A stretch of 35,838 bases of DNA from Kiritimatiellia bacterium (GTDB lineage Bacteria; Verrucomicrobiota; Kiritimatiellia; RFP12; UBA1067): assembly GCA_045540275.1 (NCBI GenBank), contig JAZQGX010000297.1, forward strand, positions 1-35,838, given 5' to 3'. Numbering within the stretch: the stretch's first letter is position 1; the number at the start of each line of letters is the position of its first letter. Of the stretch, positions 3,241-35,838 are shown piece after piece. The translations under genes and the position numbers were made by a program. The notes beneath the pieces were generated by a model. It saw only the letters and a list, made by a program, of their open reading frames with translations. It was not told the origin of the DNA and ran no database searches.

Positions 3241-3248
3241 GTTTTCAG

Positions 3249-4772: not shown

Positions 4773-5302
4773 ATGCTTTGAATTCAGTGAACGACAAGGG
4801 GAAGCTTTTTATCTTGATGGCGCTGATGCTTTGCGGCGTTGCGGTCTTTGCGTATAAACCCCAGATGGAAAAAATCAAGGCGAAGCAAAAAGAGTATCGC
4901 AATGCGGTGGCAAAGGTCGAAAAGGAAAGAAAACTGATTTCCGAAAGCAAAAGCTGGGAGGCGAAGTATGAAAAGTCGGCGGCATTGATGCCGGTCTTTT
5001 CGGCGGAGCAGGCGGTGGACACTCATTGGCTTGGCGTAATGGACTCGCTGGCGGTTTCCAACCACGTCGAGATTGCCAAACGGCAGGTCGGCAAGGAGAT
5101 TGAGGTCGGTGACGTGTTCGAGTTCCCGGTGGACTGCAAGGATTGGGAGGCAACGCTCAAATCGACAGTCGATTTTCTTTGGGCGCTCAATGCGGCGGGG
5201 GCGATGCTGGATATCCGCCAGCTGTACATTCGCCCCATCAACAACAAGCCGGGTTACCTGCGCGGGCAGTTTACTTTGAATTGCGCTTACATGCGTGATT
5301 GA
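4769..5302 (+). CDS. GspM / PilO-like bitopic membrane protein
   Basis: The product is 177 aa with an N-terminal TM segment (LFILMALMLCGVAVFAY), then a coiled coil (KIKAKQKEYRNAVAKVEKERK) and a small periplasmic domain. It overlaps the upstream gene in an ATGA arrangement and sits immediately before the secretin. Confidence 0.45.
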   Translation: MNALNSVNDKGKLFILMALMLCGVAVFAYKPQMEKIKAKQKEYRNAVAKVEKERKLISESKSWEAKYEKSAALMPVFSAEQAVDTHWLGVMDSLAVSNHVEIAKRQVGKEIEVGDVFEFPVDCKDWEATLKSTVDFLWALNAAGAMLDIRQLYIRPINNKPGYLRGQFTLNCAYMRD

Positions 5303-5325
5303 TATCAGGAGTTTTCGAGAGGAGC

Positions 5326-9974: not shown

Positions 9975-12268
9975 CATTTAAATGTTTTTCCGTTACGATT
10001 TTAACATTCGCCTTCGCATTTTTTGCCGTTGCCCAGAACGATGTCGCTGTACTGCACGGACGAAACGCCAATGCAACCGACTTTGACGCTGCGGTGAAAA
10101 ATACCGGCATTAATGCCGATTTTTTCAAGTGCAACGATTCTGAAATCAGGCGATTCTGCGCGAATCTGGGACAATACCGACTTGTTCTGCTCGATTCGCT
10201 TTTTAATATGGGGCGCGATGGGAATCTGCTTTCGGACGATGCTACCGATTTCAGGGCGGTACGCGGTTTTTTGGAACGGGGAGGGGTGTTGGTCGCCACC
10301 GATGCGGTTTATCCCCATGTCAACGGCTGGCTCGACAAGGTGTTGGGCGGAGCGAAAGTGCCAAAAATCGGAAAATGTAACTCGTCGCAATGGGCGGTAC
10401 TGGGGCATACCGAAAACGTCGAGCCGGTATCGTCGCTCCGTTCTTTCCCGAATTCGATAACGCAAGGCAATTCCTGGCCGCATTACGAGAAGGATATCGA
10501 TCCGTCCTGGACGGTCGTCGCCAATTGTTCGGAAGGATTTCCGGTCGTTCTGACGCGCAATGTCGGCAAGGGTCTGGTGGTGCTTTCCGCCATTCGCCAG
10601 CCCGGTGAAAAAATCCTCGAGAACAATTACGCGCAAGCCCAGCTCAGGGCTGCCGGTGTGGATGTGAAAAACTTTTCCATGTCGCCGCTGGCTCCCGGGC
10701 GCGGCGAGCTGAACATCGAATTGACCAGACCCGCCCCGAAGGGAGCGGTTCTGATATGCGAATTCATCGATGCCAAAGGGGTGAAAACCACCGCGAGTGC
10801 AAGTTTTACCGGTAATGTCGCAAGAGTAGAATATTTCATCAAATCCCGGGGAGAGCTTGCGTCAAAGCTGTATCTAAGTGCAAACGGCAGGCAGTACAGT
10901 CTTTGCGCAAGAAAAGCCACGCTTCCTCCGCTGCTGACGATCGAGCCTCCGGCATATCGCGGCATCATTTCCACCAAGCGCCGTCTCCCTGCGGTAAGGT
11001 TCCGCATCCGTCTTGCGCCGACTGCTGAAAAACTGCACGGGGCGGTGTTGACGGTGGGACTGTACGATTCATTGAGCAATTGCGTTTTCAAAACCAGCAG
11101 TAAAATCCCAGAAGAGTCGAAGGCAAGGCTTGATACCGATTTCGATCTGCCGCTTGAATTGCCGAAAGAACTTTCTGACGGTGAATATGAAGTTCGCGCC
11201 TCGCTCAACCGCTACAACGCCAAATCATCCGCACCGGTGCGAATTCTCGCCCCCCGTCCCGCGCAGACGGTCATTGATGAAGACAATACCTTTTTAATCA
11301 ACGGCAATCCGTTCTTCCCGTTGGGCATCTACCATCCCGCCGGCAATTATGCCGATATTTCCGAAATCGGTTTCAATACCGTTCAATTCTGGAAATGGGA
11401 TATGGGGACAGATCAGCGCTACGGGGTGCCGATGGGCTTATACAAGGCTTTCGCCAACGGACTGCGCTGTTTGTTTGAATCGAATCATCACGGTGATATG
11501 ATATACCGCGATGTCGTCAGCAAGGCCGGTGACCATCCGGCGATTCTGATGTGGTATGTGGTTGACGAACCTGCGGAAGGGGCGGAACGCAGAATGCAGA
11601 GCATCAACGACGGATGGCATAAATACGATATTCACCATCCGACCTATCTGCTCTCGTGCAGAGAGGACCTTTTCACGCAGCATCAGAGATACGGCGATGT
11701 CTTCGCGTTCGATCCTTACGGAAGCAAGACCAGAGACAGCTTCGATCAGACGATCAGCTGGATGAAGAAGGGGAAGGAGGCGACCGAAGGACGCAAGGCG
11801 CTGATCTGCGTGCCGTGGGCGACGCCGGAAAAGGTCGATAGCATAAGACCGCTGGCTTATGCCGCGTTGGTGCACGATGCCCGCGGGTTGATCTGGTATT
11901 GCTGGCGGCAGGCCGGCGGCGGACCGCTCGGCATAGGATTGAATACCCGAAAAGACTGTCAAGAGGAATACCGGAAATTGCTTGCTGAAATCAAAACGCT
12001 GATGCCGGGTCTGCTTTCCGCAAGACGGCGGACGTTTGAGGACGGAAATCTGCACGGCATGGTTTGCGGCGACGCGCACGCTCGCAACAAGCGTTTTGCA
12101 ATTCTGCTCAATGTGGCTTCGGGCAAAGGGGACTATGAACTTGTCGTTCCGGAGCTGTCGGCCGTCAAGACGGTGACGGATCATTTTACGGGAGCTCAAC
12201 TCCCGGTGGTGGACGGAAAAATCAAGGTGTCATTGGGTCCTCGGGAGGTTGCTGTCTATCGGTGGTAG
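9971..12268 (+). CDS. Secreted 765-aa protein, a putative clan GH-A-like glycoside hydrolase with an N-terminal ThuA/GATase1-like domain
   Basis: The signal peptide is MTFKCFSVTILTFAFAFFAVAQ. GGVLVATDAVYPHVNGW resembles class-I glutamine-amidotransferase-like/trimerisation domains. NGNPFFPLGIYHP...FNTVQFW and ILMWYVVDEP recall the (beta/alpha)8 GH-A NEP acid/base strand. It overlaps the kinase stop in an ATGA arrangement. The family assignment is not secure. Confidence 0.4.
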   Translation: MTFKCFSVTILTFAFAFFAVAQNDVAVLHGRNANATDFDAAVKNTGINADFFKCNDSEIRRFCANLGQYRLVLLDSLFNMGRDGNLLSDDATDFRAVRGFLERGGVLVATDAVYPHVNGWLDKVLGGAKVPKIGKCNSSQWAVLGHTENVEPVSSLRSFPNSITQGNSWPHYEKDIDPSWTVVANCSEGFPVVLTRNVGKGLVVLSAIRQPGEKILENNYAQAQLRAAGVDVKNFSMSPLAPGRGELNIELTRPAPKGAVLICEFIDAKGVKTTASASFTGNVARVEYFIKSRGELASKLYLSANGRQYSLCARKATLPPLLTIEPPAYRGIISTKRRLPAVRFRIRLAPTAEKLHGAVLTVGLYDSLSNCVFKTSSKIPEESKARLDTDFDLPLELPKELSDGEYEVRASLNRYNAKSSAPVRILAPRPAQTVIDEDNTFLINGNPFFPLGIYHPAGNYADISEIGFNTVQFWKWDMGTDQRYGVPMGLYKAFANGLRCLFESNHHGDMIYRDVVSKAGDHPAILMWYVVDEPAEGAERRMQSINDGWHKYDIHHPTYLLSCREDLFTQHQRYGDVFAFDPYGSKTRDSFDQTISWMKKGKEATEGRKALICVPWATPEKVDSIRPLAYAALVHDARGLIWYCWRQAGGGPLGIGLNTRKDCQEEYRKLLAEIKTLMPGLLSARRRTFEDGNLHGMVCGDAHARNKRFAILLNVASGKGDYELVVPELSAVKTVTDHFTGAQLPVVDGKIKVSLGPREVAVYRW

Positions 12269-14156: not shown

Positions 14157-17100
14157 ATGAGTATTGAGGATTCATTTGATTACAATCAGACGCTTACGGG
14201 GCTTGGTAAAATAGACCAATACGAAATTTTGCAGGAACTTGGCGGAGGCGGTTTCGGTTCGGTGTATCTCGCGCGAGACACCACCTCCAGGGTGCTGGTT
14301 GCAATCAAGGGGCTTCCCCCGTCGGTCAAGAACGATAACGAGGATATGGAAAATATCAGAAATAATTTTACCATCGTTCACGATCTGCACCACCCCCATA
14401 TCGCCGCTGCTCTAGTTCTGCATCGTGCGAACAAGGTTTGCTACTCCAAAGAGGAGGTGCGGCAAAAGCTTCGGGTGCTGGAAGGCGATCCTCTTCTCGT
14501 CATGGCATACGCTCCGGGTGTTACTCTCTCAAAATGGCGCAGGCAGTTTCCGAAAAATATCGTTCCAACTGATCAGGCGATAGAGATTGTTAAGCAGATC
14601 GCCTCCGCCTTGGATTATGCCCATGCTGAAAAAGTGCTTCATCGCGATGTAAAACCCGCCAATGTAATGATTGAAACCAAAGCCGACGGCTCAATAACCG
14701 CGCGCGTGCTGGATTTCGGTTTGGCGGCGGAAATCAGATCATCGCTCGGGCGCAGTGCCGGTCAGGTGCATGACACATCGGGCACTCGTCCGTATATGGC
14801 GCCTGAACAGTGGATTGGAGCTAGGCAGAGTAGTGCTACCGATCAGTATGCTTTGGCGGCGATGTTTTATGAACTTATTACCGGGGAGGTCCCGTTCGCT
14901 TCCGTTTTTCAGACGGGAGATGCGATAGTGATGATGAATGTTGTCAGGGGGCAGAATTTTGTTCCGCCGCCCGATATGCCGAAAAATACAGCCAAGGCGC
15001 TATCGAAAGCGCTTTCAAAAGATATTGATCAGCGCTTTCCCTGCTGCATGGATTTTGTCAAGGCCTTGCAGGGGGATTTTGCGACAACCGGCCGCAACAG
15101 CCGGACGGTCGTGAAAGAATCTAAACCGCTGCCGTTTGCGCGGATTTTCGCCGCCGTTTCAATTGTCGCGCTGGCGCTTGGCGGTGCGTGGTACGGATGG
15201 ATGAGATACGATCAGGCGGCGAAGGCGCGCAAACTCGAAGAAGAGCGTCTTCGCGGAGAAGTATACGATATGCAGGGCCGTGCCAGTCAGGTGCGTGAAC
15301 TCAATCAAAGTGCGGTGTGGAAAAATTGGAAGCATTTTCAATTTCATGCCAAAGAGTTGGAGTCTTCATACCGCGCCGGTGAAATGGCGTTGGAGAAAAA
15401 CGATTTCAATCTCGCCAAGGTGCAATTCCAGAAAGTGCGCGAGTATTGGCTGCTCTTGAGTTCGAACAAGGCGGACCGCGCACAGGCGCTACAGAAGTGC
15501 GAGGTGGTAAAGGTCGCCCGCCGTACCGCCGAAAAGGCCTCGGCCGGAGTGTTAGCGTCGAATGATTTTGCCGTTGCTGAAAGTATCGAGCGCAATGCCG
15601 ATGAATTGTTCGAAAACGGTTTGTTCAACAAAGCGATTGCGGAGTATGAGCAAGCGAATGCCGCTTTTGCAAAAGCGCTAAAGAGTGCTGAAAATGAAAA
15701 TAAACGCCGGATAAAAGCGAAAATAAAAGCAGACACCGAGGCGGCGCTGCTTGCGTTTAATGCAAATCCTCCCCGATATATCGAAGGCATGAAATATTCG
15801 GCAACGGCGGACAGGGAAAATCCCGATCTTCAGTTTCATCTCGCCCGCTGTTATTTTCATGGATACGGTGGGGTCGCGGTCAATAAGCCCGAGGCCGCAC
15901 GCTGGTATCTCAAATCGGCAAATCAGGGGTGTGCGGAAGCATTGGTGCCGATCGGTCTTATGTACGAGAAAGGTGATGGGGTTGCTCTGAATTATGCGGA
16001 AGCGGTAAAATGGTATCGCAAGGCGGCGGAAAAGGGAGATTGCTCCGGCGAGAATTATCTCGGTGAAATGTACGAGACGGGAGACGGCGTTGCCAAGGAT
16101 ATTGCAGAGGCCGTCAAGTGGTATCGCAAGGCGGCGGAAAAGGGATTTGCGCGGGGGCAACTCAATCTGGCTCGCATGTATGCCCAAGGCACCGGAGTTG
16201 AAGAAAATCAGCTGGAAGCCGCGTCCTGGTTCCGCAAAGCGGCAGAACAAGGTGAAGCGAAAGCGCAATACCTGCTCGGATTAATGTATGCCGAGGGGAA
16301 TGCGGTAGCAAAGGACAATAAGGAAGCCGTATCCTGGTTCCGCAAAGCGGCCGAGCAGGGTGATGCGTCGGCGGCTTTTTCTCTGGCTATTCATTGTGCC
16401 AACGGGCGCGGAGTCGATAAAGACCTGGCGGAAGCGGCGAAGTGGTATCGCAAGGCGGCCAATGTTGGACACGCTCAGGCGCAACGTAATCTCGGAATGG
16501 CGTATGAAGAAGGTGCGGGGGTTCCCAAAGATGCCGTCGAAGCATTTAAGTGGTATTATAAGTCGGCGGAACAAGGTGATAAATTCGCACAGTTTCTAGT
16601 CGCTTATTCCTATTTTAAAGGACAAGGGGTCAATGAAAACAAAACCGAGGCCGTTAAGTGGTATCTCAAGTCCGCAGAACAAGGAGTTGTAAGTGCGCAA
16701 CGGAACCTCGGCATATTGTACTTCGAGGGACAAGGAGTCGATAAAAATTATTCAGAGGCGGTCAAGTGGTCTCGCAAAGCAGCTGAAAAGGGAGATGCAG
16801 TCTCCCAATCGAATTTGGGGTGGGCGTATGAGCACGGTAACGGCATAGAACAGGACTATGCGGAAGCAGCAAAGTGGTATCGGAAGGCCGCCGAGCAAGG
16901 CAATGGGACTGCGCAGTGCAATCTGGGTGATCTCTATGAGAAGGGGAAAGGGGTCGATAAAAACATGGCCGAGGCGATGGCCTGGTATCAAAAGGCGGCG
17001 AAAAATGGCAGCGTGCGCGCCAAGGAGCGGCTTAGCGAGTTTACTTCTGCGTCCGATGTTGACAAGCGCTGTCGCGAGGGAATTACCATGCTTGGGTTGG

Positions 17101-17924
17101 AACCCGACAATGACTCCTTCCGCAATGGCCAGACGATATATATTTCTCCCGGCGACAACGCCAAGGAAAAAATTGAAAACAGCCCCGACTGGGCAACGAT
17201 ATTATTTGACAAGGGTGAATATGATTTGGGTTGGTTTAAGCTAAAGGGGAATAAGCGCATTCGAGGGAAGGGCATCGGTAAGACCATTATCAAAGGAAGG
17301 ATTAATTCCGGGAATGGAGGGAGTTATTTGATAGCGATGGATGCTACTTTTGTTATTGATAGCAGCACAAGTGGGAAATATCCAATTTGGGTGGATGAGT
17401 ACGGTAAAGCGGTGATAAAAAACTGTGGGCTAATCGGCGGAGGAATTTGGGCAAGCGATGGTAGCAAATGCGTTGTATCCCGTACCAATGTGAAAGATGC
17501 TTATGGCCGTGGAATTTCAATGGGCGATAATTCGAAAGTTTATGTTGCCGACTCAAAACTCAATGCTGCAAATGACAAATCGGCGGTATTGCATGGAGGA
17601 GCGCGAGTTGTAATGAAAAACACTCAGCTTTCTACGCAGAAACAAGATGAGAGTGTTTGTTATTTCGGATTTGAAAATACTGCTTTCTATTTAGAGAACT
17701 GCATATTAACAGGAGATGATAGAGGCATAGCTATAGGCAATGGCGCTAGCGGATGTCTTAAAAATGTTACCTTTCAACGATGCAAAGATAGTATAGAGAA
17801 TTATGGGGATATTGAACTATTTGGCAATACCTATCACGGTAATAAGTTCTCAAGTTCTTCCAAAGGCAAATATATCAATAAAGAGAACGGCAACTTTGAC
17901 GTAAATCCTAATTTCTTTAAATGA
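14157..17924 (+). CDS. Kinase 1: a Hanks-type Ser/Thr kinase with a TM helix, a coiled coil, about 12 Sel1 repeats and a C-terminal parallel beta-helix
   Basis: The kinase motifs are LGGGGFGSVYLARD, AIK, HRDVKPANVMI, DFGLA and GTRPYMAPEQ. The TM segment is IFAAVSIVALALGGAWYGW. The Sel1 repeats are units like AVKWYRKAAEKG...LG.MYE.G.GV.KD. The tail has PbH1-like turns (NCGLIGGGIWASDGSKCVV...GISMGDNSKVYVADSKL...GIAIGNGASGC). Confidence 0.85.
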   Translation: MSIEDSFDYNQTLTGLGKIDQYEILQELGGGGFGSVYLARDTTSRVLVAIKGLPPSVKNDNEDMENIRNNFTIVHDLHHPHIAAALVLHRANKVCYSKEEVRQKLRVLEGDPLLVMAYAPGVTLSKWRRQFPKNIVPTDQAIEIVKQIASALDYAHAEKVLHRDVKPANVMIETKADGSITARVLDFGLAAEIRSSLGRSAGQVHDTSGTRPYMAPEQWIGARQSSATDQYALAAMFYELITGEVPFASVFQTGDAIVMMNVVRGQNFVPPPDMPKNTAKALSKALSKDIDQRFPCCMDFVKALQGDFATTGRNSRTVVKESKPLPFARIFAAVSIVALALGGAWYGWMRYDQAAKARKLEEERLRGEVYDMQGRASQVRELNQSAVWKNWKHFQFHAKELESSYRAGEMALEKNDFNLAKVQFQKVREYWLLLSSNKADRAQALQKCEVVKVARRTAEKASAGVLASNDFAVAESIERNADELFENGLFNKAIAEYEQANAAFAKALKSAENENKRRIKAKIKADTEAALLAFNANPPRYIEGMKYSATADRENPDLQFHLARCYFHGYGGVAVNKPEAARWYLKSANQGCAEALVPIGLMYEKGDGVALNYAEAVKWYRKAAEKGDCSGENYLGEMYETGDGVAKDIAEAVKWYRKAAEKGFARGQLNLARMYAQGTGVEENQLEAASWFRKAAEQGEAKAQYLLGLMYAEGNAVAKDNKEAVSWFRKAAEQGDASAAFSLAIHCANGRGVDKDLAEAAKWYRKAANVGHAQAQRNLGMAYEEGAGVPKDAVEAFKWYYKSAEQGDKFAQFLVAYSYFKGQGVNENKTEAVKWYLKSAEQGVVSAQRNLGILYFEGQGVDKNYSEAVKWSRKAAEKGDAVSQSNLGWAYEHGNGIEQDYAEAAKWYRKAAEQGNGTAQCNLGDLYEKGKGVDKNMAEAMAWYQKAAKNGSVRAKERLSEFTSASDVDKRCREGITMLGLEPDNDSFRNGQTIYISPGDNAKEKIENSPDWATILFDKGEYDLGWFKLKGNKRIRGKGIGKTIIKGRINSGNGGSYLIAMDATFVIDSSTSGKYPIWVDEYGKAVIKNCGLIGGGIWASDGSKCVVSRTNVKDAYGRGISMGDNSKVYVADSKLNAANDKSAVLHGGARVVMKNTQLSTQKQDESVCYFGFENTAFYLENCILTGDDRGIAIGNGASGCLKNVTFQRCKDSIENYGDIELFGNTYHGNKFSSSSKGKYINKENGNFDVNPNFFK

Positions 17925-21811: not shown

Positions 21812-22393
21812 ATGGGATTCCTGTTTTTTAAAAGCAAGCGTGAAAAAGAGCGTGCCGAACGCCGCGAACGCCGTCATGCGCTTCGCAAGGCCGAGAGTGC
21901 GGTCGATGAAGTGGTCTCGCGCATCAAAAGGATGGAAAAGGATGCCGACGCCGAATGGGAACGCGCCCGCGAAGCGACTAAAGAAGGCAAGCAGGCCGCG
22001 GCTCAGCGTGCTCTGACCAGTTATCGTTCGGCACAAGTGCTGGTTACCAAACTCGAGCAGAAAAAATGGGTCTTTAAGCAGGTTCTTATGAAACTTGAAA
22101 CCGCTGGAACCGACGCCGAGTTCGCCAAAGCGCTTGCGGCGGTCAACAGGGTTACCGATATCAATGTCGAGATGGTCGAAGACGTGTTTGACGAAGCCGG
22201 AGATCTTCTCGCCGAATCCGGCGACGTCGACAAGTTCTGGGCGCAGATGTACGGCAAGGAGGTCGAGGGTTCGAAAGTAGCGCTTCAAGACCATATTCCA
22301 TCAATGGAAGATTTGGAAAGGCATCTTCAGGAGGAAGTTGCAGGCAAAATTGCAAGCGGCATTTCACCGGAAGAGCTTGAGAAAGAGATTTAG
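21812..22393 (+). CDS. ESCRT-III (Snf7/CHMP/Vps2-like) family protein
   Basis: The product is 193 aa. It begins MGFLFF and has a basic N-terminal half (KSKREKERAERRERRHALRK) and an acidic C-terminal half. EATKEGKQAAAQRALTSYRSAQVLVTKLEQKK is colinear with the Vps2/CHMP2 alpha2 region (KMAKQGQMDAVRIMAKDLVRTRRYV). VNRVTDINVEMVEDVFDE...DLL matches the alpha4/alpha5 region. The C-terminal EDLERHLQEE is MIM1-like. GGAGG lies upstream of the ATG. Confidence 0.6.
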   Translation: MGFLFFKSKREKERAERRERRHALRKAESAVDEVVSRIKRMEKDADAEWERAREATKEGKQAAAQRALTSYRSAQVLVTKLEQKKWVFKQVLMKLETAGTDAEFAKALAAVNRVTDINVEMVEDVFDEAGDLLAESGDVDKFWAQMYGKEVEGSKVALQDHIPSMEDLERHLQEEVAGKIASGISPEELEKEI

Positions 22394-22467
22394 TTCATAA
22401 TCACTGCTGGTTCCGGCGTGAAAGCAGCTTGTGATGAGTTGTTATTTGATGATGCAAGAGGTGGATC

Positions 22468-23577
22468 ATGCAATCGATAGGCGATAAGAAGAACGATCGA
22501 ATGTCTGCTTGCCAGACGGCGATGAAGGCTCGTGATTACGCCGCTGCCGCCAAGGCTGCGGCAGATGTGGCTGATTGCGCTGAAATTCTCGCCTCTCGTA
22601 CGACCGGTGTCGTGGCCAAGGCGTATGCCCGGGAAATGGAATCATGGCGGTCGCTGGCGAACAGGCTTGAAGCGAGAAAAGCCTGCTCCGCACCTCGCGA
22701 TGACGCTCGCCCACAGGCGGCGCAGGTTATTGCAGATGGCGATGAATGGCTTGTCGGCGAGAAACCGGATGTGACCTTCGATGACATCGCGGGGATGGAA
22801 GAGGCAAAGCGCATTATCGACGAGATGGTGATCTACCCCATGAAGTCGCCGGATAAGGCTCGCGCTTTGGGGCTTAACCCCGGCGGCGGCGTTTTGCTCT
22901 TCGGCCCTCCCGGAACCGGCAAAACCATGCTCGGGAAAGCGATAGCAGGGGCTCTCAACGCACCGTTCTACTATGCTTCCGGTGCAGATTTGCGCTCTAA
23001 ATGGTACGGTGAATCAGAGCAGCGCCTGTCAAAACTTCTCAATGCCGCAAAGTCACAGCCGGTGGCGGTGTTGTTTCTTGATGAAATCGAATCGCTGCTT
23101 CCGAAACGCACCGAATCATCGCACGCTGCCGACAATCGGGTGGTGACGCAATTTCTTTCCGATATCGGTGGGTTTGATGGATCGGAGAATCTGCTTCTGA
23201 TTCTCGGAGCGACCAATAAGCCGTGGAATATCGACGAAGCGGTTTTTCGTACCGGGCGTTTCGACGAAAAGATTTATGTCGCACCGCCGGATGCCGCCGC
23301 CAGACTCAAAATTCTGGAGTTGAACATCGCCGGGGCGCAGCTCGGTCCGGAAGTCGATTTAAACGAAATCGCCAAAGCGATGGAAGGGGCGTCGGGCTCG
23401 GATGTGTCGGCAGTAGTTTCCGCGGCCAAGCGTTCGGCATTGGCTCGCGCAATCCGGGAGGACAGCGATCCGGTTATCTGCAAAGAGGATTTGCAAGCGG
23501 CGCGTGAGCGTATTCCGCTTAGCATCACCGGTGAAATACTTGAGCCTTATGAGCGGTTTATGAAGGAGCGGCTTTGA
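22468..23577 (+). CDS. Vps4-like meiotic-clade AAA+ ATPase with an MIT-like N-terminal three-helix region
   Basis: Walker A is VLLFGPPGTGKTMLGKAIA. The diagnostic SKWYGESE(Q) corresponds to the Vps4/katanin/spastin SKW(V/L)GESEK. Walker B is VLFLDEIESL. LGATNKPWNIDEAVFRTGRFDEKIYVAPPD and ...MEGASGSDVSAVV are present. The C-terminal helix EDLQAARERIPLSITGEILEPYERFMKE resembles the Vps4 C-terminus. The N-terminus has the MIT-like helices AAAAKAAADVADCAEILASR...AKAYAREMESWRSLANRLE. Confidence 0.8.
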   Translation: MQSIGDKKNDRMSACQTAMKARDYAAAAKAAADVADCAEILASRTTGVVAKAYAREMESWRSLANRLEARKACSAPRDDARPQAAQVIADGDEWLVGEKPDVTFDDIAGMEEAKRIIDEMVIYPMKSPDKARALGLNPGGGVLLFGPPGTGKTMLGKAIAGALNAPFYYASGADLRSKWYGESEQRLSKLLNAAKSQPVAVLFLDEIESLLPKRTESSHAADNRVVTQFLSDIGGFDGSENLLLILGATNKPWNIDEAVFRTGRFDEKIYVAPPDAAARLKILELNIAGAQLGPEVDLNEIAKAMEGASGSDVSAVVSAAKRSALARAIREDSDPVICKEDLQAARERIPLSITGEILEPYERFMKERL

Positions 23578-29071: not shown

Positions 29072-32000
29072 ATGAACAAGAATTCAATTAATAACGATAT
29101 TACGATAACTGAGGAGGGTGAGCATCCTCGTGAAGGGGATGGTAATCGTCCTCGCGCTTGGGAGGGCGAGCATCCTCGTGCTTGGGAGGGCGAGCGTCCC
29201 CGCGAGCCGTTATCGATGAACAATGCGGTAACGTTGCGTCCTCAAGCGGGCGCATCGCTCGGTCGTATCGACCAATATGAGCTTATCCGCGAGCTTGGCG
29301 GAGGTGGATTCGGTTGCGTGTATCTCGCACGCGACACGGTTGCCGGGATTGAGGTCGCGGTAAAGGGCTTGCCTCCGCTCGTTCGGCTCAATAAGGAAGA
29401 GCTTGAAAATGTCCGAAAGAATTTCGCTTTAGTTTCGCGACTTCATCATCCGAATATTGCGGCGGCGCTTCATCTGCAGAAGGTTGAAAAGGCTTTTTAC
29501 GACGACAAGGCTGATGCTGAAAAACTGCGCGTCTTTAATGGTGACACTCTCGTTGTAATGCAGTACGCGCCAGGCGTCACGCTCTCGCAATGGCGTAAGC
29601 AGTTCCCTGACGGCAAGGTGCCGTTGGATAAGGCGCTCGAAATTGTGCGGCAGATTGCGTCCGCGCTCGATTACGCGCATAAAGAGAAGATTCTTCATCG
29701 TGACATCAAGCCAGCGAACGTGATGATTGAAACATTACCTGACGGCTCGATTGCGGCACACGTTCTTGACTTTGGGCTTGCCGCCGAAATTCGCTCCTCA
29801 ATGAGCCGCGTCTCGCGTGAAGTAACTGATACGTCGGGTACGCGACCTTATATGGCGCCGGAACAGTGGGGCGGACGGAAACAAGGCAAGGAAACTGATT
29901 TATATTCTCTTGCAGTTCTTTTTTATGAACTCGTTACAGGAGAGGTGCCGTTTGCATCTGTATTTGATACGGGTGATTCAGTACTCATGATGAATGTGAT
30001 TGAGACTAAGAATCCAGAATTTTCATCTGAACTGCCAAAGCCCATCCGCCTTGCACTCACCAAGGCCTTGTCCAAAAAGCGCGAAGACCGCTTCGGTTCA
30101 TGCTCAGAGTTCGTTGACGCGCTACAGGGCGGGCGTATATCAGGAGGGCGAGCGTCCTCGCGAGCCACCGTTATCCTCACCGCCCTTGCATCCCTTTGCC
30201 TCGCTGTCGGCGGCGTTTGGTATTGGCAAGAAGCGAAGGCGAAAGAGGAGGCTCGAATCGTCGCCGAGCAAAAAGCCGAGGCGGAACGAAAGGCTGCCGA
30301 AGAAGCGCGGCGTATAGCCGAGGAGAAAGCCAAGAAAGAGAAGGCTGAAACGGAGCGAAAGCAAAAAGAGGAAGCGGCACGGATAGCCGCCGAGAAGGCA
30401 AAGGCTGAAGCCGAAGAACGAGCTCGAAAGACAGAAGCGGTACGCATCGCGGCCGAGAAGGATGCGGAACGCAAAGCTGAACTCGAAGTGTTTCGACTTT
30501 CTTCTAAAGCACAAAGTGCACATGATCTTATCGATGGCGAGTCGTCTGAGATAAAGGAGTTTTTCGCAAAGGAAATCCGTGCCTTTGAGAATGATCGCCG
30601 AGCAGGTGATGACGCCAAGCAAAATTCAAAGTATGTAGTTGCAACGAATTTCTATGCGCAAGCGTTGATGGCTGCGACTGCGCTTAAGGTGTCGGTAGCG
30701 AATTATCGCGAGTGTAAGGAGTTGTTGCCGAAAATTGAACGTGCCAAGGAACGTGCCGATGAAGTGAATGCGGCAGGATCGTTGCCAAGCGGGTACAGGG
30801 CGGCGCAAAATGCCCATAGCGCAGCTTTAGATGCATTAAAACAAAAGCGTTTTGATGAAAGCAAGGCCAAGATGCAAGAGGCGGAGAAGCTTTTTGTATC
30901 TTTGCGAAACGATGTCATCAATGCAGTTCTTGATTTGGCGGAAGGGCACAAGACGGCAGCGCGTTGGGAGCTTTGCAAACAAGAGGCGGATAAGGTGCTT
31001 AAGTGGGAAAGCGGGAATGCAAAAGCGATTGCGCTTAAAGAGGTTGCGCAAAAAAGTCTCATGCCGTCGCTGAAAATTGTTGCGCAGATTGACGGAGAGG
31101 AGATTGACGGAGTTACGATAAAAATTGGCGACAAAGAATATGCAACTCCCTATGTAATGCAAAATTTGAAGAAGGGTGATCTTATCGGTCCTTGTGATGT
31201 TGCATATATGCGCAATGGCAAGAACTATGTCGGTACTTTCTCACAGGTAAGTGTAGATTGGCTTGGTGCTAAAGTGCTTGCAGTTGCGCTTAAGGAGCAT
31301 GCTGGCCTGCAGGCCGGAGATGTTAAGGCCATTACACTTCCTGGCGGTGTTGCAATGGTGATGGTTTATGTTGCTCCCGGATCGTTTATGATGGGAAGCC
31401 CGGAAACGGAAGAGGGGCGATACAATAATGAGACGCAGCATCGCGTTACATTAACTGAAGGATACTGGATTGGCAAGTATCCGGTAACTCAAGCGCAATG
31501 GTCGGCACTCGTAAGTGCGAATAATGTTTCATTCGATAATGGTGCTCCGGTTGCATGGTTTAGTTCTAAACGTGGAGGTGCTGATGATTTTCCGATGGAG
31601 AATATCAGCTGGGATGATTGCTACAGATTGATAAAAGCTTTGAACGCCAATGAATCGACACATAGAAGATGGATGCTGCCGACTGAGGCGCAATGGGAAT
31701 TTGCGGCAAGGGGAGGCACGAAGTCTAAAGGATATAAGTATAGTGGAAGCGATATTTTGAGTGAGGTTGGTTGGTATGACAAGAATTCTGGACATAGGAC
31801 CCATTCTGTTTCTGCGAAAAATAGAGGTAATGAGTTGGGCATTGTCGGTATGAGCGGCAATGTGTGGGAGCTGTGCCAGGACTGGTATGGTAACGATTAT
31901 TATGCAACAAGTCCACACCTGAATCCTATAGGCCCAGCTTCGGGTGATAAACGTGTCTTGCGCGGGGGTAGCTGGATGCACGATGCTCGGGATTGTCGCT

Positions 32001-32638
32001 CCGCCTCACGTGTCAATCTATCTCCCTCTCGCCGCGTCTACGGCACTGGTGTCCGCCTCGTTTGTTCGGACACGACTGTGACACAACAAGACAAAGCTCA
32101 TTCTGTGCCGGCTCAAGAAAAGAAGTCGGTCGCTGGATTGTCTCAAAAAGCCCGAAAATTTGTCGGTACATGGATTTGCCAATCAGAAGTTACTCAAAAA
32201 ACGGAGCATAACACAAAATGGGATGGCAATATCATGAAGTGCTTGCCGATTTCAACATCCATAGAGTTGGTTTGCAGAGAGGATGGGACGGCGACCCTTA
32301 AAGAAGGGGCCAATAAGGTCTTTGGCGTATCTTCCGGTACATGGAGATACAAGCATGGTATGTTTTTGATGGATATGAAAATGTCGGATGGCATTTCGTA
32401 TGAAATTAGTGCGGCAGTAAAATGGATTGGCGATGATAGTTTTTCGTTGCGCTTCGATAATGGCGAGTATGCTGCTTTGATCAAGAGTCGATGTGGGAAT
32501 ATTCACGATTTGAATGCCGTTCTCTCAATTTATGCCGATGAAAATATGGAGGTGTCGATTTCTACAAAAACACCAAATTTCAGAAGTGGCAAGGCAATAT
32601 GCAAGCCGTATGTGTTTAAAAAGATTTCAAATCGATAA
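29072..32638 (+). CDS. Kinase 2: a Ser/Thr kinase with a TM helix, a K/E/A-rich coiled coil, an FGE-sulfatase (C-type-lectin-fold) domain and a ~200-aa C-terminal extension
   Basis: The N-terminus carries a WEGEHPRA peptide repeat. The kinase motifs are GGGGFGCVYLARD, HRDIKPANVMI, DFGLA and GTRPYMAPEQ. The TM segment is VILTALASLCLAVGGVWYW. The coiled coil is about 100 aa of EEARRIAEEKAKAE-type repeats. The FGE domain reads VYVAPGSFMMGSP...YWIGKYPVTQAQW...RWMLPTEAQWEFAARGG...VWELCQDWY...RVLRGGSW...CRSASR. The ATG at 29072 is chosen because the ORF-track TTG at 29051 overlaps the upstream stop. Confidence 0.85.
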   Translation: MNKNSINNDITITEEGEHPREGDGNRPRAWEGEHPRAWEGERPREPLSMNNAVTLRPQAGASLGRIDQYELIRELGGGGFGCVYLARDTVAGIEVAVKGLPPLVRLNKEELENVRKNFALVSRLHHPNIAAALHLQKVEKAFYDDKADAEKLRVFNGDTLVVMQYAPGVTLSQWRKQFPDGKVPLDKALEIVRQIASALDYAHKEKILHRDIKPANVMIETLPDGSIAAHVLDFGLAAEIRSSMSRVSREVTDTSGTRPYMAPEQWGGRKQGKETDLYSLAVLFYELVTGEVPFASVFDTGDSVLMMNVIETKNPEFSSELPKPIRLALTKALSKKREDRFGSCSEFVDALQGGRISGGRASSRATVILTALASLCLAVGGVWYWQEAKAKEEARIVAEQKAEAERKAAEEARRIAEEKAKKEKAETERKQKEEAARIAAEKAKAEAEERARKTEAVRIAAEKDAERKAELEVFRLSSKAQSAHDLIDGESSEIKEFFAKEIRAFENDRRAGDDAKQNSKYVVATNFYAQALMAATALKVSVANYRECKELLPKIERAKERADEVNAAGSLPSGYRAAQNAHSAALDALKQKRFDESKAKMQEAEKLFVSLRNDVINAVLDLAEGHKTAARWELCKQEADKVLKWESGNAKAIALKEVAQKSLMPSLKIVAQIDGEEIDGVTIKIGDKEYATPYVMQNLKKGDLIGPCDVAYMRNGKNYVGTFSQVSVDWLGAKVLAVALKEHAGLQAGDVKAITLPGGVAMVMVYVAPGSFMMGSPETEEGRYNNETQHRVTLTEGYWIGKYPVTQAQWSALVSANNVSFDNGAPVAWFSSKRGGADDFPMENISWDDCYRLIKALNANESTHRRWMLPTEAQWEFAARGGTKSKGYKYSGSDILSEVGWYDKNSGHRTHSVSAKNRGNELGIVGMSGNVWELCQDWYGNDYYATSPHLNPIGPASGDKRVLRGGSWMHDARDCRSASRVNLSPSRRVYGTGVRLVCSDTTVTQQDKAHSVPAQEKKSVAGLSQKARKFVGTWICQSEVTQKTEHNTKWDGNIMKCLPISTSIELVCREDGTATLKEGANKVFGVSSGTWRYKHGMFLMDMKMSDGISYEISAAVKWIGDDSFSLRFDNGEYAALIKSRCGNIHDLNAVLSIYADENMEVSISTKTPNFRSGKAICKPYVFKKISNR
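29114..29209. repeat. Tandem copies of the GC-rich ~24-27-bp element GAGGG(C/T)GAGC(A/G)TCC(T/C)CG(T/C)G, encoding the WEGEHPRA/WEGERPRE peptide repeats
   Basis: Copies lie at 29114-29132 and 29162-29185 (GAGGGCGAGCATCCTCGTGCTTGG) and at 29186-29209 (GAGGGCGAGCGTCCCCGCGAGCCG). A degenerate copy lies at 29141-29161. Confidence 0.6.
29267..30232. repeat. A ~970-bp segment duplicated at 33487-34470 (kinase plus TM halves of kinases 2 and 3), about 90% nucleotide identity
   Basis: Long collinear runs are identical. One example is GAGCTTATCCGCGAGCTTGGCGGAGG, which is present in both copies. Another is ...GAAAAACTGCGCGTCTTTAATGGTGACACTCT(C/T)GTTGTAATGCAGTACGCGCC... Divergence rises abruptly after the TM helix. 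Confidence 0.7.
30143..30166. repeat. Copy of the same element (GGAGGGCGAGCGTCCTCGCGAGCC) inside kinase 2, read in a different frame (GGRASSRAT)
   Basis: It is near-identical to 29186-29209 but sits in the juxtamembrane region and is translated in another frame. Confidence 0.6.
30300..30465. repeat. Imperfect ~63-69-bp tandem repeat x3 in the kinase 2 coiled-coil region
   Basis: GAAGCGCGGCGTATAGCCGAGGAGAAAGCC (30302), GAAGCGGCACGGATAGCCGCCGAGAAGGCA (30371) and GAAGCGGTACGCATCGCGGCCGAGAAGGAT (30434) encode EEARRIAEEKA, EEAARIAAEKA and EAVRIAAEKD. Confidence 0.5.
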
Positions 32639-32656
32639 CAAGCAGAAAGGAACTGT

Positions 32657-33310
32657 ATGAGAATAAATAAGTTGATGTTGGCCATTTGTGGCATTGTTGG
32701 ATTGGCGGGGTGCGTCTCTGTCGTTTCTACGCCAGTTAGATATCCGCTTTCGGATGAAAAACCCGTATTGACGGAGAATTATCCGATTCGCACTCCATCT
32801 GCTGTTCGCGGGTGTGAAAAGATTGTGGGTGTCTGGGAAATTGTGCAATCCCATGAGACGATTTCGTCAAACACAACGACGGAAAAACCATTTAAGTTTT
32901 CGCAAATTGTTAAGATTCAATACAAATTTTATAAAGATCAGACAGTTTTGTGTAATCAAAAAGTTGGGGGGACGGAGCATAATCACAGAGGGAAATGGAG
33001 TTACGACGATGGGAAATTGACATTGCGTTTTAAGAATGCGCACAAAGGACTGGAAGATAGCATTGTTATGAATACACTCTGGTATTCCAATGAAGAAGTG
33101 GAGTTGCGCTATGCTGATTTGCGTGCATATGAAAAAATGTTTTATGTCTCGCCAAACGTAAAATCAATGACGGCTTTTTACAATCCAAATGGCACGTTGG
33201 AGACTCGGATGTATATGGATTATTCTAAATTGTCGGCGGCATCGGTATTTAATTCTATCTATTCGCCGATGATTATGAGCCGAATTGGAGATGTTTCCGA
33301 AGATGATTGA
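32657..33310 (+). CDS. Predicted lipoprotein (function unknown)
   Basis: MRINKLMLAICGIVGLAGC has a lipobox (LAGC). The gene is AT-rich (about 40% GC) relative to the window. No domain is recognised. Confidence 0.5.
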   Translation: MRINKLMLAICGIVGLAGCVSVVSTPVRYPLSDEKPVLTENYPIRTPSAVRGCEKIVGVWEIVQSHETISSNTTTEKPFKFSQIVKIQYKFYKDQTVLCNQKVGGTEHNHRGKWSYDDGKLTLRFKNAHKGLEDSIVMNTLWYSNEEVELRYADLRAYEKMFYVSPNVKSMTAFYNPNGTLETRMYMDYSKLSAASVFNSIYSPMIMSRIGDVSEDD

Positions 33311-33409
33311 ACAGTTGATGGATAAGAAAGTGAGAGGTAATGTTGAGGACGTAAAATCAAGTTGATTGGAAGAGTGTTGTTGTGTGTGAAAATCATACTA
33401 TGAAAAGGA

Positions 33410-35497
33410 ATGGTTCCCTTTATGAGTGAGAATTCGTTGAGCGATGCTGTGACGATGTGCCTGGGCGCACCGGATGCCGTTTGTTCCATCGACCAGTATG
33501 AGCTTATCCGCGAGCTTGGCGGAGGCGGGTTCGGCTGCGTATATCTCGCGCACGATACGGTCGCCGGGATTGATGTCGCGGTAAAGGGCTTACCTCCGCT
33601 CGTTCGCCTAAATAAAGAAGAGCTGGAGAACGTCCGAAAGAATTTCGCTTTAGTCTCGCGTCTTCATCATCCGAATATCGCCGCTGCGCTTCATCTGCAG
33701 AAGGTTGAAAAGGCTTTTTACAATGATAAAACCGATGCCGAAAAACTGCGCGTCTTTAATGGTGACACTCTTGTTGTAATGCAGTACGCGCCGGGAGTCA
33801 CACTCTCGCAATGGCGTAAGCAATTCCCCGATTGTAAAGTTCCGTTAGATAAGGCTTTAGAAATCACGCGGCAAATTGCATCCGCGCTCGATTACGCGCA
33901 TAAGGAGCGTATTCTCCATCGCGATATAAAGCCGGCGAATGTTATGATAGAGACTGGGGCTGACGGCTCGCTCACGGCTCGCGTTCTCGACTTCGGCCTC
34001 GCCGCTGAAATCCGCTCGTCGATGAGCCGTGTGTCGCAGAGTGTTACCGATACGTCGGGTACGCGCCCCTATATGGCGCCGGAACAGTGGGGTGGACGGA
34101 AACAAGGCAAGGAGACTGATTTATATTCTCTTGCGGTTCTTTTTTATGAACTTGTTTCAGGGGAAGTTCCGTTCGCTTCGGTATTTGACACGGGTGATCC
34201 CGTATTGATGATGAACGTAATTGAGACGAAGAATCCAGAACTTTCATCTGAACTTTCAAAACCCATTCGCCGCGCACTTGCCAAGGCCTTGGCGAAAAAG
34301 CGCGAAGATCGTTTCGCTTCATGTTCCGAGTTCGTTGATGCGTTACAAAGTGGGCGTATGTCGGGAGGGCGAGCGTCCTCGCTGGGAGGGCGAGCGTCCC
34401 CGCGAGCCGCCGCTATCCTTACCGCCGTTGCTGCCCTCGGTCTCGCTGTCGGCATCTGGTATTGGCAACAAGGATCTTCTGATGTGAATGGGAATGCGGC
34501 TCGCGAGGACGCTCGCAGGCCTCTGGCGACTTCGCTACGCGAAGCGGACTCCGTCCGGGCTATACCTCCCGTAAATGTGGCTCGCGAGTACGCTCGCCCT
34601 CCCAAAAACATCGTCCCCGCGAGCCGTGAAGATAAGGAATATACCGGTCCAAAGGATGGTGAGTGTAAAACTTTTACGCTCCCTGGCGATGTTATAATGG
34701 AGATGGTATATGTTGGCCCTGGTGAATTCATGATGGGTAGTGAAGATGGTGATGACGACGAAAAGCCAGTTCATTCCGTGCGAATCTCTCAAGGCTATTG
34801 GATTGGTAAATACCCGGTTACACAAAAGCAATGGAAAGCGTTGGTTGAAGCTAGCGATATAACCTTTGATAATGGTCAGCCTGTAGCGTACTTCAGCTCT
34901 CACGGCGGCGGTAGTAAAACTGTGGCAGGCATTGACACGTCGGACTTTCCGATGGAATGCGTTAGTTGGGATGACTGCAATAAGTTGGTAGAGGTGCTTA
35001 ACAGGAAGGAAAACTCTTCAAGAAGATGGATGATTCCGACAGAAGCGCAATGGGAGTTTGCAGCGCGAGGTGGTAGCAAATCTAAGGGTTATAAATATTC
35101 TGGTGGCGATAATATGAGCGCTTTGGGTTGGTATTATGAGAATTCAGGAGTAGACAGGCTTGCAGATTTGCAATGGAGTGTTGATAAATTAAGAAGCAAT
35201 AAATGTCGACCGCATCGAGTGGATGAAAAAGATGTAGGCAATGAGCTTGGCATAGTCGGGATGAGTGGTAATGTTTGGGAGTGGTGTCAAGATTGGTATG
35301 GGAAAGATTATTATGCAAATAGTTCAAGGTTAGATCCTAAGGGACCGGCATCGGGCGATATCCGTGTCTTGCGCGGGGGCAGCTGGTACGACCTCGCCAG
35401 GCTCTGCCGCTCCGCCGACCGCAGCGGGTCCTGGCCCGGCGACCGCATCAGCAACTGTGGCTTCCGCCTCTGTTGCTCCGCAGGACCGCGCGATTAA
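33410..35497 (+). CDS. Kinase 3: a Ser/Thr kinase with a TM helix and a C-terminal FGE-sulfatase/C-type-lectin-fold domain whose last ~40 codons look like a DGR variable region
   Basis: The kinase and TM halves are about 90% nucleotide-identical to kinase 2. The FGE domain reads MVYVGPGEFMMGS...YWIGKYPVTQKQW...RWMIPTEAQWEFAARGG...VWEWCQDWY...RVLRGGSWYDLARLCRSADRSGSWPGDRISNCGFRLCCS. The protein ends about 10 aa after GFRL. Confidence 0.85.
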   Translation: MVPFMSENSLSDAVTMCLGAPDAVCSIDQYELIRELGGGGFGCVYLAHDTVAGIDVAVKGLPPLVRLNKEELENVRKNFALVSRLHHPNIAAALHLQKVEKAFYNDKTDAEKLRVFNGDTLVVMQYAPGVTLSQWRKQFPDCKVPLDKALEITRQIASALDYAHKERILHRDIKPANVMIETGADGSLTARVLDFGLAAEIRSSMSRVSQSVTDTSGTRPYMAPEQWGGRKQGKETDLYSLAVLFYELVSGEVPFASVFDTGDPVLMMNVIETKNPELSSELSKPIRRALAKALAKKREDRFASCSEFVDALQSGRMSGGRASSLGGRASPRAAAILTAVAALGLAVGIWYWQQGSSDVNGNAAREDARRPLATSLREADSVRAIPPVNVAREYARPPKNIVPASREDKEYTGPKDGECKTFTLPGDVIMEMVYVGPGEFMMGSEDGDDDEKPVHSVRISQGYWIGKYPVTQKQWKALVEASDITFDNGQPVAYFSSHGGGSKTVAGIDTSDFPMECVSWDDCNKLVEVLNRKENSSRRWMIPTEAQWEFAARGGSKSKGYKYSGGDNMSALGWYYENSGVDRLADLQWSVDKLRSNKCRPHRVDEKDVGNELGIVGMSGNVWEWCQDWYGKDYYANSSRLDPKGPASGDIRVLRGGSWYDLARLCRSADRSGSWPGDRISNCGFRLCCSAGPRD
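34364..34411. repeat. Two tandem copies of the element in kinase 3 (GGGAGGGCGAGCGTCCTCGCT GGGAGGGCGAGCGTCCCCGCGAGCCGCC)
   Basis: It encodes SGGRASSLGGRASPRAA. This is the same position as the single copy in kinase 2, but duplicated. Confidence 0.6.
34497..34630. repeat. Inverted and partial copies of the element in the kinase 3 linker
   Basis: 34499-34516 GCTCGCGAGGACGCTCGC is the reverse complement of GCGAGCGTCCTCGCGAGC. 34575-34601 GTGGCTCGCGAGTACGCTCGCCCTCCC is the reverse complement of GGGAGGGCGAGCGTACTCGCGAGCCAC, with 1 mismatch to the consensus. 34609-34628 holds the direct partial copy CGTCCCCGCGAGCCG. The encoded peptides are AREDARRP, AREYARPP and PASRED. Confidence 0.55.
35370..35497 (+). 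other. Candidate diversity-generating-retroelement variable region (VR) at the C-terminus of kinase 3
   Basis: The scaffold is RVLRGGSW-xx-A-x-CRSA-x-R-xxxx-P-x-x-R-xxx-GFRL. The scaffold residues are shared with kinase 2, while the intervening positions differ at 16 of 17 positions that are not conserved. In kinase 3 those positions are almost all NNC codons (tac, gac, ctc, ctc, gac, agc, tcc, ggc, gac, atc, agc, aac, ttc, tgc). The GC content rises sharply from the preceding FGE-domain sequence. No template repeat or RT is visible inside the window. Confidence 0.3.
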
Positions 35498-35603
35498 GGG
35501 GCGGAGCACAGTCGCGAGCGGCGGAGAGGCGCCCCCAAGCGGAGCGAGGGGGTGAGCGGCACCATGCTCCCTAACTCCTTGCCTATAACTTGGTTTTTAT
35601 TTC

Positions 35604-35698
35604 TTTGCTTTCGCTTCTTGGAGTTTAGGAGATTGGGAGTTTAGGAACTTTACCCCTCCCGATCTCCAAAACTCCAAATCTCCAAGAAGCGAAAGCAA
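35604..35698. repeat. 19-bp perfect inverted repeat (TTGCTTTCGCTTCTTGGAG / CTCCAAGAAGCGAAAGCAA) flanking a 57-nt partially self-complementary core; a long hairpin/cruciform candidate
   Basis: Arm 35604-35622 is the exact reverse complement of 35680-35698. The inner sequence has GGAGTTTAGGA/GGGAGTTTAGG direct repeats that face CTCCAAAACTCC/CTCCCGATCTCC. Confidence 0.6.
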
Positions 35699-35838
35699 CC
35701 TAAAAAGTTAGCTCCATGAACATTCACGCGCGAGCGCGGGCAGGGCGCTAACTACTAACTCCTGACTCCAGAAATAGGCCCGCCGGGAGCCTCGCCCCCC
35801 CCTTGTGGTGCAGGCCGGCCCTCCCCGGCCTCGCGCGG

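Follow-up and report, generated by a model that had tools for sequence, protein, structure and literature searches.

Why does one and the same short GC-rich sequence recur inside the protein kinase genes of a Kiritimatiellia bacterium, translated in different frames and lying in both orientations? The question is raised by a contig of 35,838 nucleotides (JAZQGX010000297.1 of the GenBank assembly GCA_045540275.1, positions 1 to 35,838, hereafter the window), in which ca. 10 copies of the element TGGGAGGGCGAGCGTCCYCGCGAGCC are found within the kinase genes K2 (29072-32638) and K3 (33422-35497). We have followed up an original prediction, made from the letters of the window, in which the element was thought to be selected, or to have spread, at the DNA or RNA level rather than as a peptide. 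Our analysis identifies it as a repetitive extragenic palindromic (REP) sequence of the GTAG type, belonging with the paired units known as REPINs (REP doublets forming hairpins), because its copies in other genomes often form inverted doublets, carry a GTGG, GGAG or GTAG head and directly flank seven open reading frames (ORFs) that resemble REP-associated tyrosine transposases (RAYTs). As to how it came to lie in the kinase genes, we are confident that the explanation is RAYT-type insertion followed by in-frame survival in disordered segments, inheritance by gene duplication, slippage and decay.

The element and its copies in the window

The element is 25-26 nt long, GC-rich and an imperfect palindrome. 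A 4-nt head (GTGG, GGAG or GTAG) is followed by GGCGAGCG-TCCY-CGCGAGCC, and head and element can be written as the pattern G[TG][AG]G-GGCGAGCGTCCYCGCGAGCC. The imperfect stem of 8 bp predicted for it has 6/8 Watson-Crick pairs, with a central tandem G.A mismatch, and encloses a loop of 4 nt; a sister variant, GGGCCCGTGTCCCCACGGGCC, found at two loci (L010, L045), is a perfect palindrome. When the window was scanned with the 25-mer GGGAGGGCGAGCGTCCYCGCGAGCC, allowing up to three mismatches, matches were obtained at 29184+, 30142+, 34384+, and 34579-, each with at most one mismatch, against a chance expectation of 0 (100 dinucleotide shuffles). A looser scan with the 26-mer and up to eight mismatches, for which shuffled sequences yield 0-1 matches, added further copies at 29159+, 34362+, and 34498-, a decayed one at 22692- and a variant at 35777-. 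No Rfam family was matched at gathering thresholds over the whole window, and a literature search by the DNA strings GCGAGCGTCC and GGACGCTCGC returned unrelated primer matches only. A CRISPR-like (clustered regularly interspaced short palindromic repeats) array or an ordinary tandem repeat was ruled out by the irregular spacing and by the dispersed and inverted copies.

All the copies reported by the original prediction, at the K2 N-terminus (in tandem), after the K2 kinase domain, twice in K3 and, inverted or partial, in the K3 linker, could be located. K2, on the forward strand, encodes a Ser/Thr kinase with a transmembrane (TM) helix, a coiled coil and an FGE-sulfatase domain (Pfam Pkinase 8.8e-42, FGE-sulfatase 1.1e-41; identical to P0003). 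Its N-terminal tail holds an array of four in-frame 24-nt units derived from the REP (29113-29208, forward; aa 14-46, EEGEHPREGDGNRPRAWEGEHPRAWEGERPRE), detected by Tandem Repeats Finder (TRF) at 29113-29204 with a period of 24 nt and 3.8 copies, and the last unit (29183-29208) is the exact consensus. The array must be coding, since the conserved N-terminus of the family, MNxN(S/T)xNNxxTM, is upstream of it; no array of this type was found among the best 120 homologues. A single further copy (30141-30166, forward; one mismatch to the 25-mer) is read as SGGRASSRA just N-terminal of the TM helix, at a site where most close paralogues have G[GAL]RASSRA. K3, also on the forward strand and with a short linker instead of the coiled coil (Pfam Pkinase 3.6e-42, FGE-sulfatase 1.8e-47; identical to P0001), has two tandem copies in the juxtamembrane linker (34362-34408, forward; read SGGRASSLGGRASPRA; TRF 34363-34403, period 21, 2.0 copies, 95% matches). 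They are followed by a reverse copy of the AGGCCT-head subfamily (34498-34523, AREDARRP), recognized by the looser scan and its register, and by a ~50-nt companion, LATSLREADSVRAIPP, which together make up a composite of ~75 nt (34498-34570, reverse strand). The same composite is found between genes in related contigs, 3' of kinase genes in L122, L123 (P0018), and L123 (k2), and in frame in P0004-P0007. Finally, a second reverse copy (34579-34604, AREYARPP) and a forward partial copy (34612-34625, VPAS), separated by a 7-nt spacer, can be paired as a hairpin (34579-34625, reverse strand).

Four registers are in use in the window, three forward and one reverse, and all six across the whole data set. 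The N-terminal copies of K2 are read as WEGERPRE, the first base of the element falling on codon position 1, and the juxtamembrane copies of both kinases as GGRASSRA or GGRASPRA, where it falls on codon position 2; VPAS represents the third forward register and AREDARRP and AREYARPP share a single reverse one. The use of three frames and both orientations, as originally described, is thus confirmed. There is no stop codon in any of the six registers of the element, which is therefore translated as a peptide rich in Gly/Arg/Ala/Ser/Pro/Glu. All the window copies keep the reading frame, and the length differences attributable to inserts (+24, 54, and 81 nt) as well as the tandem periods (21 and 24 nt) are all multiples of three.

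The N-terminal array of K2 is flanked on both sides by a duplicated NNDxTx / NNAVTL motif. Several paralogues (K2, P0013, and P0044; window 29093-29116 vs. 29211-29237, L121 10001-10070, L123 16239-16370) have the N-terminal motif NNDVTM in duplicate, and between the duplicates K2 and P0044 hold unrelated inserts, so that the REP array of K2 sits in a pre-existing or co-created short duplication.

The original prediction had placed the copies inside kinase genes. This is correct for K2 and K3, but the element is not limited to kinases, nor is it present in all of them. A decayed copy with 6-8 mismatches (22692-22717, reverse; APRDDARPQA) lies in a Vps4-like ATPase, in the linker between the N-terminal and AAA domains, and the orthologues in L121, L123, and L124 have one exact and one partial copy at the equivalent spot (ARGDARPPMRGDARPS). 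Downstream of K3 and near the contig end, the looser scan detected another member of this repeat superfamily between genes, the variant GGGGGGGGCGAGGCTCCCGGCGGGCC (35777-35802, reverse); at the matching position L122 and L123 have a standard REP in reverse orientation, after a CTAACT/CTGAC tract. No REP copy was found by the window scans in the kinase K1 (14157-17924), which is characterized by at least 11 Sel1 repeats of 108 nt (15950-17010; repeat families D2/D3; Pfam Sel1 2.4e-106) and a C-terminal beta-helix.

Distribution of the element and its RAYT-like neighbors

The 21-nt core was scanned against 185,579 species-representative genomes, where it was found at 120 loci at least, and the full 26-mer was found at no fewer than 120 loci in metagenome contigs. 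Among the matches listed, most were from metagenome-assembled genomes (MAGs) of Verrucomicrobiia, Kiritimatiellae, and Lentisphaerae/Victivallales, and single MAGs had many element-bearing contigs (at least 14 in JAFGHX01 and at least 8 in WRJS01). The flanks of the copies are unrelated save for the 4-nt head and a 3' G. Inverted pairs are common, 20-40 nt apart with forward and reverse starts separated by 40-60 nt, and the partner arm is sometimes a variant with a different central octamer. In the fetched DNA we counted 434 GGCGAG-N8-CGAGCC sites vs. two occurrences of a scrambled control pattern. Their heads were GGAG in 302 cases, GTGG in 93 and GTAG in 7, the GGAG count being inflated because the metagenome search pattern demanded it. 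At the wide sample of genome loci from the Planctomycetes-Verrucomicrobia-Chlamydiae (PVC) group, the open frame around the copies is shorter (median 720 nt) than around sites chosen at random (median 1347 nt; p = 7e-14), in keeping with a largely extragenic placement. Some of them are truly intragenic, with Pfam domains at either side, in MutS, a DEAD-box helicase/DUF3516, a ResIII-type helicase and a UvrA-like protein. Viral contigs gave 15 matches in 2.9 million, which does not support spread by phages. The spread at the DNA level of a REP- or MITE-like repeat (MITE, miniature inverted-repeat transposable element), one of the candidates of the original prediction, is thus borne out by hundreds of unrelated PVC loci, by the inverted doublets and by the copies flanking RAYT-like genes. 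The opposite outcome that it had envisaged, an element absent elsewhere and invariant among strains, was not what we found: the element is widespread and homologues differ.

A few of the genome matches bear the labels Acidobacteria, Armatimonadota, Nitrospirales, or Bifidobacteriaceae. In MAGs assigned to distant phyla, namely to Bifidobacteriaceae/Bifidobacterium (L042, L052, L066, L108, and L114), Nitrospirales (L015, L068, and L116), and Ca. Acidoferrum (L020, L032, L037, and L112), exact copies were seen with a GGTG head of the Verrucomicrobia type. These could be mis-binned PVC contigs, or the result of horizontal transfer or of a wider host range.

The E. coli RayT protein (K-12 record) was searched against all the ORFs of the fetched loci, and seven RAYT-like ORFs of ~160-240 aa with HUH and tyrosine motifs were retrieved (L007, L111, L117, L140, L208, L209, and L221). 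The ORF of L007 is at 2713-3255. REP copies were found within ca. 100 nt of the ORF, or overlapping it, in 7/7, and on both sides in six of the seven; in L209 there are inverted doublets among the copies on each side. An element copy was also seen inside the RAYT-like ORF of L117 (6366-7100), between the HUH and tyrosine motifs. One RAYT-like ORF matched the NCBIfam model NF047646 (REP_Tyr_transpos) with E = 6.5e-20. At E <= 1e-10 there are 647 homologues in this clade (the best 120 of the 647 being 58-79% identical), some of which are named "REP-associated tyrosine transposase" or RayT by the Joint Genome Institute. The layout known as "REPtron", a RAYT gene flanked by REP copies, defines REP/REPIN-RAYT systems, and RAYT-type HUH/tyrosine transposases mobilise REP elements via single-stranded hairpin DNA.

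GTAG-tagged REP/REPIN elements and their RAYT transposases were reportedly described by Nunvar in 2010 and by Bertels and Rainey in 2011. The present element is like them in being a GC-rich, imperfectly palindromic sequence of ~25 nt with a 4-nt G-T/G-A/G-G head, in its inverted doublets and in the RAYT-like genes flanked by copies. It is unlike them in the tandem G.A mismatch of the stem and, within the lineage of the contig, in having mostly intragenic copies, clustered in three gene families, with no RAYT seen on its contigs. Besides, it is the same 21-26-mer in several phyla and classes, while species-specificity has been reported for many REP families; this identity may be due to vertical inheritance over a long time together with a conserved RAYT, to horizontal transfer or to the mis-binning of contigs. 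GTAG- and CGTC-tagged sequences are the two superfamilies of REPs, and GTAG-type REPs are present in PVC bacteria, including Opitutus terrae, where GTGG is the head of GTAG-20 (Di Nocera et al. 2013, PMC3733652). Approximately 70 ORFs of O. terrae carry REPs, in several registers and with a Ser/Thr kinase as one of the hosts, and such intragenic inserts have been argued to occupy flexible linkers (Di Nocera et al. 2013, PMC3733652). The GTGG head, the in-frame intragenic copies in several registers and the Ser/Thr kinase host are all shared with the element described here. The peptides given for GTAG-17/18/19 of O. terrae are different from those of our element, which is therefore another REP family and repeats a phenomenon already known from other bacteria, that of intragenic in-frame REPs. 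What is expected of a REP, unrelated multi-copy loci, a GTAG-type head, inverted doublets and, in other PVC genomes, a RAYT flanked by copies, was found. A predominantly extragenic location, also typical of REPs, is not seen in the window and its close relatives, but intragenic REPs are documented for the superfamily (PMC3733652).

Copies within the genes of close relatives

The close relatives considered here are the window and six related contigs (L121-L126) fetched via homologous kinases. In this set, 41 of the 47 copies lie inside called genes: in kinase N-terminal tails, the juxtamembrane segment, the extracellular linker and two loops of the kinase domain, in the linker of the Vps4-like AAA ATPase and at one spot of a reverse transcriptase of the diversity-generating retroelement (DGR) type. 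The copy in the reverse transcriptase, at ca. aa 203, was seen exact in L124 (12699-12723) and decayed in L126 (13684-13708). Among ca. 1000 homologous kinases, the juxtamembrane site holds a single copy read in the +3 register, a tandem pair with a period of 21 nt, a full copy accompanied by a partial one, or copies in the +2 or +1 register, and it is empty in paralogue types B and C. The 21-nt duplication of K3 is also present in P0004, P0026, P0029, and P0030, while other paralogues have a single copy. A block of 54 nt, corresponding to the hairpin unit of one reverse and one partial forward copy, is exactly missing from P0020 (L122) and present in K3, P0013, P0018, and P0008. K3 has in addition an extra duplication of 81 nt, by which P0004-type and P0013-type linkers are joined at REP cores, making its linker a mosaic of the two. 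Two orthologous kinases of syntenic contigs, L121_k1 and L123_k1, are 88% identical overall and near-identical around a kinase loop in which only one of them has an exact consensus copy, adding 24 nt. Copy-number variation, which the original prediction proposed to look for by aligning homologues, was thus found at the juxtamembrane site, the 54-nt block and the +24-nt site. The slippage or recombination hotspot that it had offered as an origin of linker-length variation is better regarded as a consequence of the repeats, illustrated by the 21- and 24-nt units, the 81-nt duplication, the 54-nt difference and the +24-nt insertion.

These observations can be accommodated in a single course of events. 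REP copies would be inserted by a RAYT into protein-coding DNA of the contig's lineage, and those that survive would be the ones adding multiples of three bases and tolerated in disordered tails, linkers and surface loops. They would then be passed on with gene duplication, which would explain why K2, K3 and dozens of paralogues share a copy in an identical place. Once inserted, copies may be amplified through slippage, giving the 24-nt and 21-nt units, and may provide the short stretches of homology through which deletions, duplications and mosaics arise. Fixed copies would decay slowly: three contigs have an exact AAA copy and the window a degraded one, which argues for decay after fixation. 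The peptides encoded by the copies are probably neutral.

A comparable behavior is known from other small repeats. The Rickettsia palindromic elements (RPEs), reportedly described by Ogata and colleagues in 2000, are the classical in-frame palindromic repeats, translated as extra surface or linker segments that keep the protein intact. RPE-1 measures ~100-150 bp, and RPEs are confined to Rickettsia; two of them, RPE-4 and RPE-6, are of the CGTC-tagged class, for which no transposase is known. Our element shares with RPEs the in-frame insertion into ORFs and the translation as an extra peptide segment, but with ~25 nt, a GTAG-type head, a link to RAYTs and a distribution in PVC bacteria it is RPE-like in behavior and not a member of that group. 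MITEs within genes (small mobile sequences of enterobacteria and cyanobacteria, Correia elements) are non-autonomous, add peptide segments and are polymorphic in their presence or absence; their terminal inverted repeats match those of insertion sequences with a DDE transposase, and they produce target-site duplications. Here too there is a small repeat in ORFs with presence/absence differences. Unlike in MITEs, the two sites for which an empty and a filled version are available have no terminal inverted repeats of the insertion-sequence type and no consistent target-site duplication (one has a GGAA microhomology only, and at the other 13 nt are replaced by 37 nt), and the enzyme linked to the element is an HUH/Y1 RAYT.

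Several observations weigh against this course of events, or at least against its application to the contig itself. The match of the RAYT-like ORF to NCBIfam stays just under the cut-off (71.5 vs. 80 bits), and a Pfam search of the RAYT-like proteins gave no Y1_Tnp match and no match at all. The RayT search found no RAYT gene in the window or in the six related contigs, and it is for this reason that mobilisation in the contig's own lineage is something that we infer. Approximately 87% of the copies here are genic, whereas classical REPs are extragenic, and they are limited to three gene families (kinases, AAA ATPase, and DGR reverse transcriptase), with none in ca. 60 neighboring genes. Such clustering, in three families within a single gene cluster, is not fully accounted for by descent, random insertion and tolerance. 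The 54-nt difference may have arisen by deletion instead of insertion. As for the element itself, the hairpin predicted for a single unit, GGC..GCG(loop)CGC..GCC, has -5.2 to -5.5 kcal/mol (z -0.1 to -0.4 vs. shuffles), i.e., it folds no better than shuffled sequence, being a weak palindrome that relies on tandem G.A pairs.

Alternative explanations and neighboring genes

One could think that the repeat is selected as a peptide, an Arg/Gly/Ser/Pro motif serving as a juxtamembrane charge signal or as a phosphorylation or docking site, the likeness of the nucleotides being due to common descent. In fact, most close paralogues read the juxtamembrane copy in one register, as G[GAL]RASSRA, and the copy is on the cytoplasmic side of the membrane helix, a location for which one expects positive charge. 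However, the same DNA gives unrelated peptides in its four registers (six in all the data), some paralogues use the +1 or +2 register at this very site and types B and C do without it, and copies are found in unrelated proteins and flanking RAYT genes. We have rejected the peptide motif as most improbable, given that several registers are used and that there are copies between genes too. A kinase-specific structure of the mRNA or DNA with a function of its own, in which a long hairpin around the TM-coding segment would control translation, membrane targeting or mRNA stability, fares little better. RNA structure was among the original candidates, and the inverted copies of K3 do fold: the segment 34340-34640 reaches -150.9 kcal/mol vs. 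-121 +/- 5.5 in shuffles (z = -5.4), because forward copies pair with reverse ones; the 54-nt unit forms a hairpin of 13 bp (-12.7 kcal/mol, z = -2.5), and the layout of forward copy, TM helix and reverse copy is found in at least 10 paralogues. Yet any inverted repeat folds strongly, spacing and copy number are variable, no Rfam match was obtained at gathering thresholds, and the element appears in hundreds of unrelated contexts. Since K2, like many paralogues, has forward copies only and P0020 lacks the reverse one, we read the fold of K3 as a by-product, a conserved functional RNA in this segment is unlikely, and the kinase-specific structure as a whole we consider highly unlikely.

The copies might also have been co-opted as recombination joints, portable stretches of homology at domain borders for the shuffling of sensor domains and linkers in DGR-diversified kinases. 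The kinase domains are ~75-85% identical and combined with varied C-terminal modules (FGE-sulfatase, Sel1, ankyrin, LysM, and beta-helix), with the element at the junction; the K3 linker is a mosaic joined at REP cores, and copies are concentrated in the kinase gene cluster. On the other hand, the copy-free paralogues (types B and C) are equally modular, no recombinase is linked to the copies, the documented events are few, and rearrangement is an expected side effect of dispersed repeats for which selection is not needed. Co-option of this kind is unlikely in our opinion. Much the same doubt, perhaps slightly milder, applies to a broader proposal taken as a whole, namely that REP copies have been domesticated, both as linker cassettes and as recombination joints, and drive the shuffling of domains and the tuning of linker length in a hypervariable sensing system, within a PVC-wide REPIN-RAYT system that is among the oldest and widest. 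Copies are indeed concentrated at module borders in the DGR-diversified receptor kinases, the Vps4-like AAA ATPase and the DGR reverse transcriptase, and if the proposal were true, a 21-26-mer and a conserved RAYT clade lasting across whole PVC classes would count among the most ancient and most widespread REPIN-RAYT partnerships known. Uptake signals such as the DNA uptake sequences (DUS) of Neisseria and the uptake signal sequences (USS) of Haemophilus are lineage-specific, have cores of 9-12 nt and lack a link to transposases. Like them, the element is over-represented, in both orientations, partly genic and in several coding frames, and forms terminator-like inverted pairs. A role in DNA uptake, or as another genome-wide signal for protein binding, has nevertheless almost nothing to recommend it, as the copies specifically flank RAYT-type transposase genes, the element measures 25-26 nt with a REP-like head and predicted stem-loop, the identical sequence is found in several phyla, no competence genes are linked to it, and the secretion and pilin genes at 1-8088 are unrelated to the copies.

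With the copies recognized as REP elements, the Arg/Gly/Ser/Pro low-complexity stretches of these kinases, N-terminal, next to the TM helix or within linkers, are translated repeat DNA and not conserved protein motifs. The pairs of empty and filled sites would be examples of elements that enter coding DNA in frame and then create linker-length variation, with selfish repeats as raw material for proteins. REPIN-RAYT systems have been studied mostly in Proteobacteria, and to this field would be added a PVC-wide REP family with a RAYT clade missed by Pfam. Along practical lines, such repeats probably break metagenome contigs; the window itself ends in one.

The C-terminus of K3 and ca. 80 nt after its stop codon (35380-35580) look like a DGR target. 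In homologues that are otherwise near-identical, the final ~40 codons of the FGE-sulfatase domain differ codon by codon, and a highly conserved GC-rich block, GGGGCGGAGCACAGTCGCGAGCGGCGGAGAGGCGCCCCCAAGCGGAGCGAGGGGGTGAGCGG, is found 3' of this variable end. In related contigs a reverse-transcriptase gene comes directly after the block (L124 11865-12723; L126 12850-14789, with RVT_1 and, in addition, an HRDC ORF), and the window ends ahead of any reverse transcriptase or template repeat. K3 thus appears to be a DGR target. A tie between the juxtamembrane copies and the DGR machinery was considered and dropped, the conserved block being after the stop codon and of different sequence.

A second type of repeat, heptamer-like tracts of CTAACTC/CTGACTC, is located 3' of kinase genes (window 35740-35770; L122 ~2960-3020; L123 ~11990-12040), and its reverse complement appears to be translated in the kinase domains of L121, L123, and L124, at aa ~118-133, as ELGVRSQESGVRE. 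Downstream of K3 there is also an inverted repeat of 42 nt (35605-35698), 83% complementary with a 10-nt loop and made of GGAGTTTAGGAGATT-like units. The Vps4-like AAA ATPase gene adjoins an Snf7 (ESCRT-III-like) gene (21812-23577), an arrangement that is syntenic in L121, L123, and L124. Upstream of the pair are a Band_7/zinc-ribbon protein and an FHA protein, and downstream M48/U49-like peptidases and the kinase array, a gene cluster kept across several contigs. Over its left third (1-8088) the contig is taken up by a type II secretion/type IV pilus-like operon, which begins within a pseudopilin gene with its N-terminal methylation motif and continues with genes for a K-like protein of the type II secretion system, a PilN-like protein and a secretin.

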